Source of the DNA: Cyanobacteriota bacterium
GTDB lineage: Bacteria > Cyanobacteriota > Cyanobacteriia > Thermostichales > Thermostichaceae
NCBI GenBank assembly: GCA_033764955.1
Contig: JANRIL010000017.1
Span: 1 to 64,000, forward strand
Length of the DNA: 64,000 nt
Direction: 5' to 3'
The notes beneath the pieces are model-generated. The model was not told the origin of the DNA and did no database searches. It saw only the letters and a program-made list of their open reading frames with translations. Positions 38,646-49,877 of this stretch are shown in pieces. The stretch's first letter is position 1; each line of letters opens with the position of its first letter. Made by a program: the position numbers and the translations under genes.

Positions 38646-40280
38646 ATGTCCGTTTTCACTACCGCCACCCTGCGTCGCTTACAAAAACTACCCCAAATCC
38701 CCGCGGTCTGGGAGGGGGATCGTCGTCCCTTGCAGGAGGGCTTTCCGGCTCCTCTTTTGGGGGCATCGCCTCGTGGGGAGAGTGAGTGCATTCTCTGGGT
38801 GGATGGATCCCAAGGGGTGGTGCGCTCGATGGATGTGGTGCCGATGGATGCCGGCATGGAGGTGATGGTGCGCTCCCTGTTACAGGCGATGGAGCATCCC
38901 CACAGTGCCAAGCCCGCTCGTCCCCAAAAAATTGTGGTGCGGAATCGGGAGGTGCAGTTTTTTTTGCGGGGCATTTTGCAAGATCTCGATATCAAAATTG
39001 ACTGTCAGGCCGATCTGCCCCTAATTGATGAGATTTTTGAAAGTTTTGGAGCCTCCCTCGAACCCCTCGAACCCAACCTGCCTCCAGAATTGCAGACGCT
39101 GCTAGAAATCAAAGCGCGGCAAATTTGGCAAGATGCTCCCTGGGATTACCTGGAAGATCATCAGGTTTTAGAAATTCAACTGAAGCAGTGGGATCTCGAT
39201 ACCCTCTACGTATCTGTGATGGGGATGCTGGGCATGGAGCATGGGGTGTTGTTTTATCGATCCCTTGATTCGATGAAGCAGTTCCGGCATTGGGTGGCTA
39301 GCCAGCCCTCCCCCGATGTGATGGAGGAAGCCTTTCTCAGCCAAGATTGCCTGTTCCTCAACTACAGTGCTGCCGATCCGGAATTAGAAGCGGAGGACAT
39401 TGTTCTATCTGGTCTGCCTCCAGAGGAGATTGAACCTACCTTTGGCACTATTCATCCTCTAGAGGGCTTGCGACCTTTACTGCAAGCGGAGGAGGGGTTG
39501 GCCTTAGTTGTTATGCTGGAGGCTTTGCATCGCTTTTTCCAACAGACGGGCAGGGTGTTAGCCAACGACTTTGTTCCCGAAACTCGCCGCTTCCGCATTC
39601 CCCACCCACAACCGGCAGGAGATCGCCAAACGATTTCGGTGCAGGTCAGGACGCTCCCGGATCTGGCCACAGAATTGTTGGCTATGGGGGAAGCAGAGGA
39701 GGGAGGTCTTCCCACCGTCCTGTTGCGGGAGGATCTGCTGCCGGACAAAGCTCACCTAGCGATAGGGATGATTCCCTGGTCGGTGGTGGAGGCTCTGCGG
39801 CTGATGGGGTTGCTCTACCCCATTCCTGAGCAGGAGATTGTGACGGAGGGGGATGGCTTTCCGGTAGTGATTGTTCAAACCACCCGTCCCAAAGCCAAGG
39901 TCTTGATCGAACACCTGCGAGAAGCGGGATCCCCTCAGGCTCTCTGTTTTAATGATGGGGTGGATCCGTGGAGCGGGGAGCGCTACGACCTGGAAATTAT
40001 CCAGACGGGCAACGGAGAGCTGCATTTATTTGGAGAGTTTCTGCAAGAGGATCCCACCCATGTCATGGCTCGTCGGCGATGGGATCGCCGTTGTCAATTG
40101 ACAGGTAAAAATTGTGGGTTGTTGATTGCGATGGGATCCACCAGCGTCAAGCAAGACGGACTGCAACTACGGCACATGTTGGCACTCTTTCAGCTTCGCT
40201 CCTTGACCCCAACGGATTTGGGACTGGGCACGATTGTCCGTATGCCCCTTGGCTCAGACATCATGGGGGAAGCAGATTGA
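38646..40280 (+). CDS. Conserved cyanobacterial hypothetical protein (DUF6930-like)
   Basis: TLRRLQKLPQIPAVWEGDRR, CILWVDGSQGVVR, RPQKIVVRNRE. Confidence 0.75.
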   Translation: MSVFTTATLRRLQKLPQIPAVWEGDRRPLQEGFPAPLLGASPRGESECILWVDGSQGVVRSMDVVPMDAGMEVMVRSLLQAMEHPHSAKPARPQKIVVRNREVQFFLRGILQDLDIKIDCQADLPLIDEIFESFGASLEPLEPNLPPELQTLLEIKARQIWQDAPWDYLEDHQVLEIQLKQWDLDTLYVSVMGMLGMEHGVLFYRSLDSMKQFRHWVASQPSPDVMEEAFLSQDCLFLNYSAADPELEAEDIVLSGLPPEEIEPTFGTIHPLEGLRPLLQAEEGLALVVMLEALHRFFQQTGRVLANDFVPETRRFRIPHPQPAGDRQTISVQVRTLPDLATELLAMGEAEEGGLPTVLLREDLLPDKAHLAIGMIPWSVVEALRLMGLLYPIPEQEIVTEGDGFPVVIVQTTRPKAKVLIEHLREAGSPQALCFNDGVDPWSGERYDLEIIQTGNGELHLFGEFLQEDPTHVMARRRWDRRCQLTGKNCGLLIAMGSTSVKQDGLQLRHMLALFQLRSLTPTDLGLGTIVRMPLGSDIMGEAD

Positions 40281-43179: not shown

Positions 43180-44028
43180 ATGACTAGCCTTCCATTCGTG
43201 CCAGTTGGGCAAGAACCTACGTCATCGGCTCGTGCTGATGTCATAGCGGTGGGTGGTGCGGAAGATAAAGAAAATGAAAAGCAGATCCTTTGGGATTTTT
43301 TTCGACGGGCGGGTGGAGAGCAGTCTCTCATCACCATTGTGCCTGCTGCCTCCGGGATCCCGGACGTTTTGGGGGAGCTTTATCACAAGATTTTTGTGGG
43401 GATGGGAGTAGACCGCGAACATGTGCAGGTGCTCGACATTCGCAATCCCATCGAAGCCCGCAATCCCAGTGCTGCCGAGTTGGTGTTACGCAGCACGGGA
43501 CTTTATTTCACGGGGGGAGATCAGGAGCGATTATCAGAGGTGTTGGCTCAAACCGAACTCATGGAAGTGATGCGGCAGCAGTCGTTGCTGGGCAAATTGG
43601 TGATTGCCGGAACCAGTGCGGGAGCCTCAGCTTTGGGACATCAAATGATTTCTAGGGGCTATAGCGGCGAATCGCCCACGCCCGCCATTGTCACCATGAA
43701 AATGGGTCTAGGAATCCTCCCCCACGTCATCGTGGATCAGCACTTTCATCAACGCAATCGCTTGGTTCGCCTGATTACGGCTGTTGCCTATCACCCCCAC
43801 TGTCTGGGCATCGGCATTGATGAAAATACGGCTGCCATTATTCGCGCTAATGACACCATCGAGGTGATCGGAGCGGGAACCGTCACCATCGTGGATGGGG
43901 GCGACCTGGTCTCAACGGTCGAGATGACTCCCCCCGATCAGCTCTACAGTCTACAGAATGCCAGAATTCACTTTTTGGCTCCTGGTGCTGTGTTCAACAT
44001 CAAAAGCAAAACCCTCCTCGCCCATTAG
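43180..44028 (+). CDS. cphB: Cyanophycinase (peptidase S51)
   Basis: GGAEDK, FTGGDQ, GTSAG catalytic Ser, DQHFHQRNRLVRL, GIDENT; start 43180 or further upstream. Confidence 0.9.
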   Translation: MTSLPFVPVGQEPTSSARADVIAVGGAEDKENEKQILWDFFRRAGGEQSLITIVPAASGIPDVLGELYHKIFVGMGVDREHVQVLDIRNPIEARNPSAAELVLRSTGLYFTGGDQERLSEVLAQTELMEVMRQQSLLGKLVIAGTSAGASALGHQMISRGYSGESPTPAIVTMKMGLGILPHVIVDQHFHQRNRLVRLITAVAYHPHCLGIGIDENTAAIIRANDTIEVIGAGTVTIVDGGDLVSTVEMTPPDQLYSLQNARIHFLAPGAVFNIKSKTLLAH

Positions 44029-44162
44029 GGATCCCTCTCACCTAGTGGTAGGCGAGTTCCTAAGAATACGCTAACGCTACGCCCCACCAGTGACAGGATG
44101 TGGAGGCAGGATCCAGAGTAGACGGATTTTGTCAACTTCAAAAACCACAGAGATGTGGAATT

Positions 44163-44195
44163 GGTGATAGTCATCACAACTTGATTCAAATCACA
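44163..44195. promoter_or_regulatory. Two tandem CRP-family (TGTGA-N6-TCACA)-like sites
   Basis: GGTGA-TAGTCA-TCACA (44163-44178) and CTTGA-TTCAAA-TCACA (44180-44195). Confidence 0.45.
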
Positions 44196-44309
44196 AACCG
44201 ATGCGTAATTGCCTTCGTATTCCCTATAGATGAACACCAAGAGAGCCAATTATTCACGGCAACTAATCTAGGATTCATCCTCACCCAATACAAATTGATG
44301 GAGTCGGTT

Positions 44310-44546
44310 ATGAATACGGTACAACGCATTGCTTCTGTTGGAATCAGCACACTCACTCTGGTTACCCTGGGCACATCAATGGCTATGGCTAGTTCCGGTG
44401 GAGATCGCTTTGAACCTTTGCCCCAATCCCCTCGCCAAGGGACTCTCATTGCGGCTTCGACCTCTGATATGGGCTGGATGGGCAAACTTTCTTCTAATAC
44501 GCTAGAGCAGTTGATTCAACAGGCTCAGGTGGGTAAAAAGAACTAG
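44310..44546 (+). CDS. Small secreted hypothetical protein (78 aa)
   Basis: GGAG RBS; signal peptide MNTVQRIASVGISTLTLVTLGTSMAMA. Confidence 0.65.
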   Translation: MNTVQRIASVGISTLTLVTLGTSMAMASSGGDRFEPLPQSPRQGTLIAASTSDMGWMGKLSSNTLEQLIQQAQVGKKN

Positions 44547-44793
44547 AGTCTACTTTTTCCTCAAAGGGAAAATAGTGGTTAAATAGCTTCAAATAACTCC
44601 AAACAAACAAAATACTCTGATAGTTTTTGGGTGGAATAACATCTCCCCAAAGATTGTCAGAGTTATTTCTTGTTCCCCTCAAACTTGGCATCTCCAAACT
44701 GCTTTCTGGGCAGGGTGATAACGATTTTTTCACAATTGTCCAGTAAGATTGAGGGATCCCTTTCCCCAATGATCAGGTAGGTCGGGTGATACG

Positions 44794-45246
44794 ATGCGCT
44801 ATTGGTTGATGAAATCGGAACCCACGGTCTACGGGATCCAACATCTGCGGCAACAGCAGCAGACCCTTTGGGATGGGGTGCGTAACTACCAAGCCCGCAA
44901 CTTCTTGTTGGAAATGCAGGAGGGGGATTTGGCCTTCTTCTATCATTCCAACAGTCAGCCCCCTGGCATTGCTGGGTTGATGCGGGTGATCGCCACTCAG
45001 ATAGTGGATCCCAGCCAGTTTGACCCCATCAGTCCCTATGCCGATAGTAAAGCCACCCCGACCCAGCCCCGTTGGTGGACGGTGAAGGTGGAGTTTGTTG
45101 AAGAAATTTCGCCCCTTATTGATCTCACCCAACTCAAGCAGAGATTTTCGGGAGATGATCTCTGGGTGGTGCGACGGGGCAACCGTTTGTCCGTTATGCC
45201 CGTCGAAACCTGGGTGGCCGAGAATATTTTATCCCTGCGCAGCTAG
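44794..45246 (+). CDS. EVE domain protein
   Basis: MRYWLMKSEP, WDGVRNYQARNF, GDLAFFYHSN, RLSVMPV. Confidence 0.95.
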   Translation: MRYWLMKSEPTVYGIQHLRQQQQTLWDGVRNYQARNFLLEMQEGDLAFFYHSNSQPPGIAGLMRVIATQIVDPSQFDPISPYADSKATPTQPRWWTVKVEFVEEISPLIDLTQLKQRFSGDDLWVVRRGNRLSVMPVETWVAENILSLRS

Positions 45247-45261
45247 AATCTGTCATCAATT

Positions 45262-45349
45262 CGATAACGACCACGTTGAGCTGCCCCAGCACTTTTTCGG
45301 ATTCAACGAAGAGACTTGATACGGTCGGTGTACAACAGGATTGTTATGC
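45262..45349 (-). repeat. attC site (88 bp, left arm degenerate)
   Basis: Minus strand GCATAAC-AATCCT-GTTGTACACCGACCG...GGGGCA-GCTCAAC-GTGGTC-GTTATCG. Confidence 0.7.
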
Positions 45350-45353
45350 TGAG

Positions 45354-46619
45354 CTATCTCATCAACACCCGCATTATAATCGCCAGTGCCCCTAACCCAA
45401 TCCCAACAAGCGCTGGCACCAAACGATCACCCAAAATTCGCAACTTTGCATTCATCGGTAGCTTCCCTGTTTCCCAGTAAACCCAGTCATCTCCTAACTG
45501 GCTTGCTAACTCTAAATTGCCTGAAATCAGGAGAACGATACCATTACCCGTAGCAGGATTGACCCGCACCGTATGCCCTAGCGCAGGCAAATTCCCCCCA
45601 TCATGACCTACCGCATACTCATCAATGCCATTAGCAACATACAAGGTATGCCCTAAACCCCAATCTTGATGTGCCCCTGGCTGAGGCTGAATCATTTGGT
45701 TTAGTGTTTCTTGTTTTAGAACTAAGTTCTTTCGGCTATAAGCTTGAACGAAGCGAGCCATATCTTGAGGGGTTGCATAAAGGGATGCCGCTGCTGTAGC
45801 TGTATATCGACGGTGAGGACTCGGTTGAAGTTCTTCATCGAAGCTAGTTGCTAGCTTATCTGCACGACCAGAAGCAGCGATCGCCTCCCAGTCAAAGCTT
45901 GATTTTTCCATGCCCAAAGGCTGCAAGATAGCCTTTTCCATATAGTCCGAAAAAGACCGTTGGGTAACTTCCTCAATTAATAATTGCAAGACTGTATAAC
46001 CCCCACCGGAATATAGCCAGTTTCGTCCAGGCTCTCTAGCAACTGTGACACCACGAGATTTTCCTGACGTAGAATCCTTAGTCAAAGTCAGCGATTCTTC
46101 AAGGGATTGAATCGACTCACCTGGCAGAAAACCAGCATAGCCAAAAAGATCGTCTAATCCCCCTGTATGACTTAACAGATGTCTAATAGTTACCTTATCG
46201 CTATATTGACTCACGGGAAATTTCCAGCGTTTTAGGTACTGGTTTACAGGTTTATCTAAAGCAATTGTTCCATCTTCTACGAGCTTCATAATTCCCCAGG
46301 CAGTGATCATCTTACTCACAGATGCCATCTGGTAGAGTGTCCGATCAATCTCGACGGGAGATTTTTTTTCGGCATTTGCAATTCCAAAAGGATGGGCTGC
46401 AACGACTTCACCCTTTTGAATCAGAATAAGAGCCGCACTACCCAGTTTCGGCTTACCTAGTTGGCTCAGTTTTTGGATCAAGTAGTTTTCGATGGTCACC
46501 AAATCCCCGCGCGGTGCCGCTGGACGGGCGATCCAAAACACTTCAACAATGACAATCCCAATGACAGTCACAGCCCAAAGTATTATCCAGCCTATCGTCG
46601 TGAAGATCTTGATACTCAT
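45354..46619 (-). CDS. Serine hydrolase, beta-lactamase/AmpC-like family, membrane anchored (gene cassette)
   Basis: SVSK (SxxK), LLSHTGG, YSGGGY, GHDG; N- and C-terminal TM segments; visibly more AT-rich than the host genes. Confidence 0.9.
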   Translation of the reverse strand: MSIKIFTTIGWIILWAVTVIGIVIVEVFWIARPAAPRGDLVTIENYLIQKLSQLGKPKLGSAALILIQKGEVVAAHPFGIANAEKKSPVEIDRTLYQMASVSKMITAWGIMKLVEDGTIALDKPVNQYLKRWKFPVSQYSDKVTIRHLLSHTGGLDDLFGYAGFLPGESIQSLEESLTLTKDSTSGKSRGVTVAREPGRNWLYSGGGYTVLQLLIEEVTQRSFSDYMEKAILQPLGMEKSSFDWEAIAASGRADKLATSFDEELQPSPHRRYTATAAASLYATPQDMARFVQAYSRKNLVLKQETLNQMIQPQPGAHQDWGLGHTLYVANGIDEYAVGHDGGNLPALGHTVRVNPATGNGIVLLISGNLELASQLGDDWVYWETGKLPMNAKLRILGDRLVPALVGIGLGALAIIMRVLMR

Positions 46620-46713
46620 GCTTTTGAAGAAAATCTGGTGAGGAAAAGAGTGAGAGCGTTCACTTCAAGCGCAGTACAAGGTTTAATATTTATCTCCCAT
46701 CCAAGGGTGAGCG

Positions 46714-46844
46714 GTATAACGCCCGGCATCACCGGCGCGGGAACGGGAACAGGCGAAAGCTTCCACGTGGAATCTAGTTCGGGATGCTGGCTGAGTCCCC
46801 CGCAAGGAGCCATGCCCCGCGTCCGGTGCATGCCGTTGTTAGGC
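46714..46844 (-). repeat. attC site (131 bp, intact)
   Basis: Minus strand R'' GCCTAAC-5nt-L'' CATGCACC-GGACGCGGG...CCCGCGCC-L' GGTGATG-6nt-R' GTTATAC, with the expected extrahelical bases (extra G in L'', extra A just inside it). Confidence 0.9.
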
Positions 46845-46855
46845 TGGCGCACTTT

Positions 46856-47413
46856 CTACGGATTGAACAATAATTCATCGAGTAGACAATTGAAGTCGCT
46901 AGCAAGACGCAACGCGGGGCTCAATCCATCGGAAACAAACCATACGCCGACGCGAGCTCCTTCTCCTTGCACGGCTCTCACGAGCGGTACATAATCTTCA
47001 TCACCTGCCACAAGTACGGCTACATCATAATGCTTCCGCATGCCGTGGACTAGCATGTCTGTTGCTAAGGTTATATCAACCCGCTTTGACCCCTTTCCTC
47101 TATGTTTCTTGAACACGCGCGGCGTTTCAATGCCCATATCCTTGAGCCGTTGCTCGACTTCGCTAAGCCTTGGTTGATCACCTTGCACTGCGGTGTAGTA
47201 ATACTTCCGCATGATAGCGGGCGTGTTAAGGCCTTCAAGGTTGAGTTCCGCAGTCCAAACAAAAATGCCAGGCACGTACTGAACCCGACCAACAGGAGCT
47301 GAATTGCGCTGCTTCAGCATGGCGCCGTAACGAATCGCCAGGTTTTCTCCATCCACAAATATCATTGCTCTTGCGAGATCAGCTGTATAAGGAAGTAAGA
47401 AGGGCATCAGCAT
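46856..47413 (-). CDS. NYN/LabA-DUF88 (PIN-like) domain protein (gene cassette)
   Basis: IFVDGEN, YYYT, SKRVDITLATDM, VLVAGDEDYVPLV..GARV: acidic catalytic residues present. Confidence 0.9.
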   Translation of the reverse strand: MLMPFLLPYTADLARAMIFVDGENLAIRYGAMLKQRNSAPVGRVQYVPGIFVWTAELNLEGLNTPAIMRKYYYTAVQGDQPRLSEVEQRLKDMGIETPRVFKKHRGKGSKRVDITLATDMLVHGMRKHYDVAVLVAGDEDYVPLVRAVQGEGARVGVWFVSDGLSPALRLASDFNCLLDELLFNP

Positions 47414-47461
47414 TACCTTGAATTGCGAGAACAAAGTCGAACAGAATCATTGCGTGCGACA

Positions 47462-47548
47462 GCCTAGCGACCACATTGAGCTGCCGCGGATAAGCTAATA
47501 ACTCCCACAAAAACCCTCTCGGCAGTCGGCTCCAACGACTGGTGATAC
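47462..47548 (-). repeat. attC site (87 bp, both core triplets mutated)
   Basis: Minus strand GTATCAC-CAGTC-GTTGGAGC-CGACTGC...GCGGCA-GCTCAAT-GTGGTC-GCTAGGC; right arm nearly identical to the 45262-45349 site. Confidence 0.75.
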
Positions 47549-47849
47549 CGCGGTGCTAATCTCCACTAATTTTCACTAGCTGGTCCCTATTCAAGTAATA
47601 GCTATGAACTACTAGGATATTCTACAAGGTTAGCTTATTGAGAATAGAGCGCCTCGAAAATATAGGGGTGCTTGTTGAGAATAGCCTGGTATAACGTGGT
47701 TAATTTTCGCAATATGGCAATTAATCGAGGTTCTCAATAGATAACCTAGACTGAGGGTTGTAGACTTCGTTCATCCTCAATAAATACCTTACTGAATTTG
47801 TCAGCGTTACCCATAACGCACTACCGATCAACTAGCAAAAACCTCTCTC

Positions 47850-48881
47850 CTAGGGGAGGTTAAGTTGGGTAGTGCTGCCCCCTCGCACCGCCACAGTATT
47901 AGCTTGCCAGTTGATAGTAGCGGAACTACCGCGCACGGAGAGGTTTTGGTTGGGTTGTTGGTAGGCAACATTCCCTTGCGCCTCTACCACTGTCGAGCCG
48001 ACCTGCCAGGTCATCTGCCCCGCTTCCACCCGCAGTTGACTTTTATCCGAGCGTCCAACCACATTGCCCGTTACCACAATCTGCTGAGGAGGCCAAGGAG
48101 AGGTCATCCGATCCCCCTGTAGGTTTAACTGCTGTTCAGGATCGACAATTTCAACAGATCCCTGCGCTTGCAGTGATTGCTGAGCTAGGTCAAACCCAAC
48201 GGTGGTGGCTGCTACTTGTAGGTTGGGCTGACTGACACTTCCCCGCACCGGCTCTCCGGAGGAGTTGGCTAAGGTGATTTGCTGGTCAGCAAAATTGACG
48301 GTTAAGCGATCAGATTGCAACTGCCATCTGCTAGCGGATCCCTCAGCCTGAAGATTTTGCTGCAAGATGACTTGACCGGTAGCGGTCAAGAGATTCTCTT
48401 CGGGCAACCATTCCACCCGATCCGCCTGCACCTCCACCTGATCGTGGGCGGAAAGCACACGGACGGATCCCGTCAGTTCCAGCCTTTTGTCGAGGGGATA
48501 GACGGATCCGCGATCCGCCAGCATGGTGATGGCACGGTTTTGGGGATCATAAAACTCCCCTGCCACAGTTTCTAAGCTAGCTGAAACTCCTTCGTTGTCG
48601 TAAGTAGCCTGTTGAGCGCTCACCTTCCACAAGATACGTCCATTGGGTTGAGATTCCGTCAGGGTAATGTTTTGGTAGGTGAGGTTGGGGCTAGCGGATC
48701 CGGCAACGCTCTCCGTTGTGGACGGGTTGGACTCCGGCAATGGGGGGGCACAAGCTGCCAGCATGGTCAGCAGCAGACCCAAGCTGCTCATTCGCCAAGA
48801 ATTGTCCATCTTGCTGATCATCCCTTCGTCCTGATGCCTCAAGCCTATACTGTTGGCGGAGATAACCGGATCCCTGCTCAT
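47850..48881 (-). CDS. LptC/OstA-like LPS export periplasmic lipoprotein
   Basis: Lipobox LAAC; LTYQNITLTES..GRILWKVSAQQATY; beta-jellyroll repeats (ATGQV, AQGSV, VTGNV, AQGNV); real start probably downstream of 48881. Confidence 0.8.
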   Translation of the reverse strand: MSRDPVISANSIGLRHQDEGMISKMDNSWRMSSLGLLLTMLAACAPPLPESNPSTTESVAGSASPNLTYQNITLTESQPNGRILWKVSAQQATYDNEGVSASLETVAGEFYDPQNRAITMLADRGSVYPLDKRLELTGSVRVLSAHDQVEVQADRVEWLPEENLLTATGQVILQQNLQAEGSASRWQLQSDRLTVNFADQQITLANSSGEPVRGSVSQPNLQVAATTVGFDLAQQSLQAQGSVEIVDPEQQLNLQGDRMTSPWPPQQIVVTGNVVGRSDKSQLRVEAGQMTWQVGSTVVEAQGNVAYQQPNQNLSVRGSSATINWQANTVAVRGGSTTQLNLP

Positions 48882-49061
48882 GTTTATATCTTGGATTGTT
48901 CCCTCACTCTAGCCAATCCTGACCAGGGATCCCTATCAGGTCTGGGTTTGTGGCTCTGTGATTAACGGACGGATTGCCAGGGCTGAGTCTGCCTGCTCTG
49001 ATGGCGAGTGTTAGGATAGGTTACGAAGCGTATTCATCCATCGGCAGAGGGTTTATCCGGC

Positions 49062-49877
49062 ATGTTTCTGACCACCAGCCCCTACTTTCTCATGGCCGCG
49101 TTGACTGCGTTAGCCAGTGGTGGCATTTTTGCAATCCGCTACATTAAGCCGGAGGCCGCCCGTGAGTATGACGTGATCTTTGCCACGATGGGTCTGATTT
49201 ATGCAGGCTGCCTCCTCCTGGAAGGACAACGCCTCATTCCTTTACTATTTTTTGCCCAAGTATTGTTGGCCGTGATGGCGGGTTGGTTTGCTCTAGAAAC
49301 CTTTCGCTTGCGCTTGCAGTTAATGGAAAAATCCAAGCAAGTTGTCGGCAAAGGAGGGCGACGAGAAGGGTTTAATCGCACCTATCGACCCAATGAGTAT
49401 GAATCCGGTCGCACCGTGAGTACCCGCCGTGGTGATGCCCGCATGCGCGATGGTGCCGGCAGTCGCACCATTGCCAGCCGTGATAACGGGGATCCCCGCC
49501 ATCCTCCCGCCCGTCGCCGTCCCCCGCAGTTGACCGCCGATACGACGGTTGCTCCACGCCGCTCCCCCAAACCTGCTCCGTTGGAAGACGACATCGATAC
49601 CTATGAGGGAGAGGAGTATGACCGTTGGGAGGACAGAGATAACAGTCCGCCTCCCCCTTCAGAGCGTCGCCCTGCTGGTAGCAGACCCCGTCCCCCTGCT
49701 GATGATAATTTTGGGGAAGAGGATGCTCCCCGTTCTGAGCGCTCCGATAGCCCTGCGGCAGGATCCCGTCGCCGTCCGCCCCGTCTTCCTGATCAAGGGG
49801 AACCCGAAAACCGTCCGCCCCGCCGCGTCATCCAGGTGGAGCCTGTGATTGAGGATAACGATGAGGATGATGTATAG
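49062..49877 (+). CDS. ycf66: Ycf66 family protein
   Basis: KPEAAREYDVIFA, GQRLIPLLFFAQVLL, ETFRLR; R/P/D-rich disordered tail. Confidence 0.85.
   Translation: MFLTTSPYFLMAALTALASGGIFAIRYIKPEAAREYDVIFATMGLIYAGCLLLEGQRLIPLLFFAQVLLAVMAGWFALETFRLRLQLMEKSKQVVGKGGRREGFNRTYRPNEYESGRTVSTRRGDARMRDGAGSRTIASRDNGDPRHPPARRRPPQLTADTTVAPRRSPKPAPLEDDIDTYEGEEYDRWEDRDNSPPPPSERRPAGSRPRPPADDNFGEEDAPRSERSDSPAAGSRRRPPRLPDQGEPENRPPRRVIQVEPVIEDNDEDDV

Follow-up and report, generated by a model that had tools for sequence, protein, structure and literature searches.

A 64,000-nucleotide stretch of cyanobacterial DNA (positions 1 to 64,000, forward strand, of contig JANRIL010000017.1 in assembly GCA_033764955.1, family Thermostichaceae; hereafter the window) very probably carries a real, partly decayed cluster of attC sites lacking an integron-integrase (CALIN), in which an NYN cassette and a PF00144 hydrolase cassette, accompanied by three attC sites, lie within housekeeping DNA. 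The three sites are all on the minus strand, neighbouring sites are no more than 4 kb apart, and no integrase occurs on the 89-kb contig, C23, to which the window belongs. On both counts, clustering and the lack of a nearby integrase, a preliminary description of this DNA as a CALIN is borne out. CALINs were defined by Cury et al. 2016 in a text that also states that cyanobacteria encode integrons (PMC4889954), and the present locus is a new instance of an element kind already published, also for cyanobacteria.

Read along the minus strand, the array opens with a leading attC of 87 nt (site 1, 47462-47548), which is found by two covariance models, R1 and R2, and by an nhmmer profile. The NYN cassette (748 bp, 46720-47467, minus strand) would extend from the base after the G of the site 1 R' box to the G of the R' box of the middle attC, ends that are placed by attC alignments. 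It contains a 192-aa NYN-domain open reading frame (ORF; 46856-47434, minus strand; PF01936, E 9.4e-20) with a TTG start, and an internal ATG may be the true start. The middle attC (131 nt, 46714-46844, minus strand), recovered by R2 and by a fixed-geometry scan, is followed by the hydrolase cassette (1452 bp, 45268-46719, minus strand), which runs from the TT of the middle R' box to the G of the site 3 R' box and encodes a 421-aa serine hydrolase of beta-lactamase/transpeptidase fold (45354-46619, minus strand; PF00144, E 9.6e-58). The terminal attC (site 3, 45262-45349, minus strand, 88 nt) is supported by R1 and R2, by repeat comparison and by orthologous attCs. The NYN ORF stops 11 nt and the hydrolase ORF 4 nt ahead of an R'' box, in agreement with the 4-11 bp given earlier.

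Detection and condition of the attC sites

R1 and R2 were built in this analysis from training sites that all lie outside the window, and their E-values are rough. R1 derives from 40 aligned sites with the attC structure drawn by hand, and was run over the whole window with filters off. It returned site 1 at 36.9 bits (E 7.6e-8) and site 3 at 32.5 bits (E 1.4e-6), the next match scoring 15.7 bits. Because R1 could not span the 131-nt middle site, where it gave only a local match of 5.5 bits (its 13 helix pairs all standard), R2 was built from 22 sites of the same genome, six of them divergent. R2 scores the middle site at 39.9 bits (E 3.6e-8) with 18 of 18 modelled pairs standard, site 1 at 35.9 bits and site 3 at 26.7 bits (E 1.3e-4), ahead of a next match at 15.9 bits (E 0.11). 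The three sites therefore rank at the top of the 64 kb, on the minus strand and at exactly the coordinates first proposed for them, and each of them is recovered when the whole genome is searched at E <= 0.01; whether an attC covariance model would score them had been set as a check, and R1 and R2 do so. A family profile made with nhmmer from five sites outside the window finds about 60 copies in the genome and recovers site 1 at E 3.5e-7.

The family on which R1 was trained is a true attC family. Across its 40 sites, 85.6% of cells pair, compared with 73.7% in shuffled alignments (none of 500 shuffles reached the observed value); compensatory changes occur in 14 of the 18 pairs, and partners slid by 1-3 columns pair in only 27-51%. 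RNAalifold predicted no structure from a MAFFT alignment of these sites because MAFFT staggers the arms, which is why the structure was supplied by hand. Rfam holds no attC family, and a scan of 44000-49000 at E <= 10 gave three chance matches only. When a fixed geometry was sought instead (AAC...GTT anchors, a 3-bp stem, a bulged base, a 6-bp stem, a bulged base and a 4-bp stem), the middle site formed 13 of 13 pairs; it is among three perfect sites of the genome, and the reversed genome has none. Free-energy folding likewise separates the middle site from its shuffles (-36.7 kcal/mol, z -2.49, plus strand). Two further attC-like matches, at 39625-39683 and 49224-49271 (both minus strand), reach 15-16 bits (E ~0.1) with both models; they have good R boxes and short loops, the second lies within ycf66, and both are probably chance.

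The three sites differ in condition. Published attC requirements, as given in PMC5027507, name the AAC and GTT triplets as the sole conserved letters, with spacers of 5-6 nt and lengths of 57-141 nt; of the bottom-strand bulged bases, which a 6-bp stem separates, the first is most often G and the far one is T and conserved. The spacers here are 5 and 6 nt and the lengths, 87, 131 and 88 nt, fall inside the published range. Both triplets are retained by the middle site and by site 3 and have been lost from site 1. In the middle site, the boxes read GCCTAAC (R'') and G|TTATAC (R'), the variable loop is 78 nt, and the bulged bases at 46829 and 46822 enclose a 6-bp stem, the far one being T on the bottom strand. 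In site 1, the R boxes have become GTATCAC (R'') and GCTAGGC (R'), a 3-nt deficit in L' leaves a 4-nt bulge, one L-helix pair is broken, and four of the five non-standard pairs lie in the R box. Site 3 keeps intact R boxes (GCATAAC...G|TTATCG), and 4 of its 13 L-helix pairs are non-standard. The textbook character that had been described for the middle site is borne out by its 13 pairs and bulged bases; site 1 has lost its triplets, and site 3 has a broken stem. Judged by these features, only the middle attC looks intact and appears recombination-competent, and the two outer sites are presumably now inactive.

The left half of site 3 is the hydrolase cassette's own attC. Its last 21 nt are identical to site 1 at 19 of 21 positions, and we considered whether site 3 is a hybrid with site 1; over 37 nt, however, site 1 matches at 23 of 37 positions and the orthologous attCs at 20-28 of 37, so site 1 is not closer, and a hybrid can be offered only as a conjecture. 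As for the middle site, a metagenome contig (run X1) matches both of its arms (46739-46818) with 35 other letters in place of the 78-nt loop, which indicates that this attC subtype occurs elsewhere with a different variable loop.

A hydrolase cassette common to distant cyanobacteria

Cassette mobility is evident from the hydrolase gene. Homologues with 89-93% protein identity were found at seven loci, in Chamaesiphon, Pseudanabaenaceae, Nodosilinea, Leptolyngbyaceae and other cyanobacterial metagenome-assembled genomes. R2 places an attC beside the gene in six of these seven, and in 7 of the 20 loci returned overall. In five loci of other genomes the attC directly follows the stop codon, and in three an attC ends 96 nt before the start, as it does in the window. 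For comparison, LptC proteins from the host's own family share only 34-48% identity with that of the host, whereas the hydrolase is 89-93% identical between genera.

Sequence identity changes abruptly at the predicted cassette ends. At the upstream boundary, comparison with three loci gives 42-47 of 80 identical nucleotides to the left of G|TT and 81-89 of 100 to the right. At the downstream end, the last 100 nt of the gene are identical to other loci at 86-90 positions and the left half of the attC at 31-34 of 44, and past the G of this downstream attC identity falls to background (22-25 of 40). Contigs from four metagenomes, belonging to four studies, match 45333-46721 alone of the array and diverge beyond 46721, one base from the crossover. 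The cassette also differs in composition, with a G+C content of 46.1% against 53.3% for the window. One ORF with its own attC, varied genomic contexts and ends at G|TT are what is expected of a cassette, and all are found here. At the level of sequence, these comparisons establish that the hydrolase cassette belongs to a family circulating among distantly related cyanobacteria, that its boundaries lie at G|TT, and that it has been transferred between genera.

The function of the encoded protein is a separate matter. The hydrolase shares Pfam family PF00144 with class C beta-lactamases and with AmpH/PBP4B-type penicillin-binding proteins, and it scores far under all of the curated cut-offs for them: its NCBIfam scores are 47-63 bits against cut-offs of 266-415, the best being AmpH with 63 bits (cut-off 266). 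The bla_class_C score is 47.3 bits against a cut-off of 415, and nothing in these scores warrants naming it a resistance gene.

The NYN gene is a putative cassette by layout alone. Its ORF has weak PADLOC matches, to HEC-09 (E 1.8e-8) and to NYN (E 1e-6).

Integrases in trans and the origin of the array

The preliminary description found no tyrosine recombinase in the 64 kb, and the same holds for the whole of C23, where neither PF00589 nor TIGR02249 has a match at E <= 0.01; the 11 PF00589 matches in the genome are all on other contigs. A search for intI, which had been advised, located two full-length genes, at C9:19-960 (minus strand, 463 bits) and C38:63588-64529 (plus strand, 451 bits), both well above the TIGR02249 cut-off of 265, which was exceeded in none of 14 control genomes. 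Each intact intI is divergent from an array of the same attC family as that of the window, with 7 and 4 sites detected, respectively. Sequence similarity between the two integrons stops at a GTTAG crossover, where attI is expected to lie, and a 22-nt palindrome common to both stands just before it. Complete integrons, with an intI and an attI beside an array, are therefore present at C9 (C9:1-8500) and C38 (C38:53000-64800) and absent from the window and from C23. Four more intI fragments or pseudogenes lie at C36:180-860, C4:4-123, C30:655-831 and C38:182627-182934. Across the class, 94 of 301 sampled genomes encode an integron integrase that exceeds the cut-off.

Cassette sites are spread widely through this genome. 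R2 detects 76 attC sites (E <= 0.01) in 45 clusters on 26 of 48 contigs; two clusters are beside an intI, 14 are integrase-less with at least two sites (that of the window included), and 29 are single sites. Although trained on one genome, R2 also recognises attC sites in two other cyanobacterial genomes, seven in one (G013:C66) and three in the other (G030:C1:294000-306000), with scores of up to 75 bits, and the attC family is thus common to several genera. Elsewhere in the genome, cassettes at C9:5769, C11:2005, C11:36523 and C11:180491 begin, immediately past the R' box, with ~25 nt of conserved leader.

We propose that an integron integrase introduced the cassettes of the window by recombination at the G|TT of attC R' boxes, that this enzyme acted in trans from one of the genome's two complete integrons, and that the insertion target was either a secondary site or an attC already present. 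The array would now be partly fossilised: the NYN cassette is probably locked in place and the hydrolase cassette poorly excisable at best, because site 1 has lost its triplets and the stem of site 3 is disrupted, to judge from the published attC requirements. The earlier suggestion that cassette capture operates or operated here through an IntI in trans therefore fits in that integrases do exist in trans, and its past tense suits the locus better, since only the middle site looks competent.

Several observations weigh against this interpretation or limit its reach. No empty or otherwise occupied EVE-lptC junction could be shown; in the other genera of the family, EVE and ycf66 are far apart and LptC homologues only 34-48% identical, and an LptC scan of metagenome contigs gave no match. 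The assembly is 89% complete, in 48 contigs totalling 3.8 Mb, and owing to this fragmentation C9 and C38 are linked to C23 through a common composition and a common attC family. In free-energy folding, sites 1 and 3 do not outperform their shuffles. The covariance models, with their approximate E-values, are our own and not the attC model of IntegronFinder; the seeds of the family profile were reached by BLAST from window sites 1 and 3, and the six divergent sites in R2 were chosen by a geometry fixed after the middle site had been seen. In the middle site itself, the bottom strand has C, and not the usual G, as its first bulged base. Finally, the NYN query was found in none of 300 other genomes of the class at E <= 1e-40, and the metagenome contig that carries its single homologue of 72% identity shows no attC at E <= 0.01.

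As to the origin of the array, a sub-case of the proposed explanation is integrase-mediated insertion at a secondary chromosomal site (attG), followed by attC x attC insertions, with no integron platform ever present at the locus. On balance we lean towards this route. Cassette insertion at genomic GWT sites has been demonstrated and is put forward for small CALINs and single attC sites in the text of a preprint (bioRxiv 10.1101/2022.09.11.507474). The 14 integrase-less clusters and 29 single sites, with attC on 26 of 48 contigs, are in keeping with it, as is the junction with host DNA at G|TT. Less favourable to attG insertion are the failure to find a left half of the target site upstream of the leading attCs and the leading attC itself, which has no preceding gene and requires the extra assumption of a decayed first cassette.

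The far end of the array bears on the same question. A 21-nt terminal motif (45248-45268, minus strand) starts at G|TT of the site 3 R' box, and a single nucleotide separates its end from the EVE stop codon. The genome holds eight copies, each right after an attC or attC-like site: that of the window and those at C4:15557, C7:103493, C11:33788, C11:52280, C27:18905, C27:112546 and C38:64780, the last being 250 nt behind the intact intI of C38. Both flanks, before the G and beyond the motif, are different at each locus, and there is no unoccupied copy in the genome. The frequency of the motif in 300 other genomes of the class is near chance, with 24 matches (2-3 mismatches) against ~17 in a reversed control. 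The upstream boundaries of the eight motif-bearing arrays have only a dispersed repeat in common, and that in two of the eight. We suggest, tentatively and as a rather doubtful possibility, that the motif could form the right arm of a secondary docking site, specific to this lineage, at copies of which the resident integron integrases would seed cassettes around the chromosome. Alternatively, since other conserved cassette leaders exist in the genome, it may be the start of a truncated cassette family.

A different origin would be a complete integron that once stood here, from which intI and attI, between lptC and site 1, were deleted and the array left behind. CALINs are proposed to arise in this way by Cury et al. 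in the text cited above (PMC4889954), the genome holds four intI fragments or pseudogenes elsewhere, and the non-coding leader upstream of site 1 is rich in dispersed repeats able to mediate deletion. However, the 89-kb contig has no intI or PF00589 fragment at E <= 0.01, and BLAST of the 300-nt leader against the attI regions of both intact integrons gave no similarity, with no match longer than 14 nt. A 21-nt motif shared with seven other array ends also points to common seeding and not to eight decayed integrons. Without a relic of intI on the contig or of attI in the leader, loss of the integrase in situ is less likely than insertion by the resident integrases, and we regard it as improbable. 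That the three elements are ordinary intergenic palindromes (terminators, or repeats like repetitive extragenic palindromes or miniature inverted-repeat transposable elements) with a chance likeness to attC, and the genes native, is close to refuted: sites 1 and 3 do lack a free-energy signal and repeats of the latter kind do occur in the neighbourhood, but two integron integrases have arrays of the same attC family beside them, the attC fold is supported by covariation, the hydrolase gene and its attC recur in other genera with boundaries at G|TT, and the reversed genome has no site of perfect geometry.

Genomic setting and relation to known elements

The array sits between an EVE gene and an lptC-like gene, as had been reported, and domain matches confirm both flanks. 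The EVE-domain host gene (44794-45246, plus strand; PF01878, E 7.9e-49) is convergent with the array. The LptC-like host gene (47850-48881, minus strand; PF06835 and TIGR04409, both above cut-off), which is present in 23 of 23 family genomes, lies upstream of the cassettes and is co-oriented with them. The leader between its stop codon and site 1 (47549-47849, minus strand, ~300 nt) is a non-coding mosaic of dispersed short repeats. At 47562-47828 it includes an element of ~150 nt, with copies on at least 13 contigs that are 74-93% identical across the genome (BLAST), split by an element of ~90 nt that is also found on C13, C14 and C22. Some copies of the leader element elsewhere adjoin attC sites (C27:18561-18706, C45:57661-57727).

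A promoter and terminator scan gave signals at chance level. Since no such signal rises above chance and the cassettes lie downstream of the co-oriented lptC-like gene, any cassette expression would be read-through from that gene. When sequencing runs were compared by words, none held more than 8% of the words, and no RNA run was among those listed.

The preliminary description also remarked on the lack of the host octamer from this region. The absence is real, and the octamer concerned is GGGATCCC and not the canonical GCGATCGC: GGGATCCC is the iterated octamer of this host, with 4915 copies or 1 per 773 bp, and GCGATCGC has 109 copies. GGGATCCC is absent from 44753-48926, with P ~0.05 for the 2.3-kb array, and gaps of this length or longer number 32 in the genome against 22 expected. 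The gap is thus a weak sign of foreign origin. The contigs with intI carry GGGATCCC at genome density, ~1 per 800 bp. The only GCGATCGC of the window, at 45877-45884, lies inside the hydrolase cassette and is not significant at 109 copies per genome; copies of this cassette in other genomes have a second GCGATCGC, located in the 5' leader and mutated in the window's copy.

Among known systems, the locus is closest to the CALIN as described in the text of Cury et al. 2016 (PMC4889954), with which it shares a one-strand attC cluster, single-ORF cassettes and the lack of a nearby intI; complete integrons exist in the same genome, as in about half of the CALINs reported there (PMC4889954). Nothing essential differs, the particulars here being that two of the three sites are degenerate and that the array ends in a 21-nt motif common to seven others. 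With sedentary chromosomal integrons it has in common an attC family of fairly uniform make-up (84-91 nt), arrayed next to two intI genes on the chromosome. These intI-linked arrays, however, are short, with 7 and 4 detected sites, the majority of sites being dispersed as singles and small clusters over 26 contigs, and the middle site of the window is of a different, GC-rich subtype with a 78-nt loop. The small CALINs and single attC sites made by attG insertion, as presented in the preprint text, are similar in having cassettes off-platform, joined to host DNA at G|TT, and integrases in the genome (bioRxiv 10.1101/2022.09.11.507474). The attG sites published there share only a GWT consensus, whereas 21 nt are common to eight array ends here.

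In summary, the locus is a well-documented case of integron cassettes exchanged between distant cyanobacterial genera, with ~90% protein identity compared to ~40% for a housekeeping protein, and it illustrates that cassettes can come to reside among housekeeping genes with no integrase nearby. Annotation should treat the NYN and hydrolase genes as acquired accessory genes and not as part of the lipopolysaccharide-transport neighbourhood. The recurring 21-nt array end is perhaps the most useful lead of the locus. If it is indeed a docking site, it would explain the 14 integrase-less arrays and 29 single sites of a 3.8-Mb genome, and would make the origin of integrase-less arrays, open since 2016, testable in one organism.

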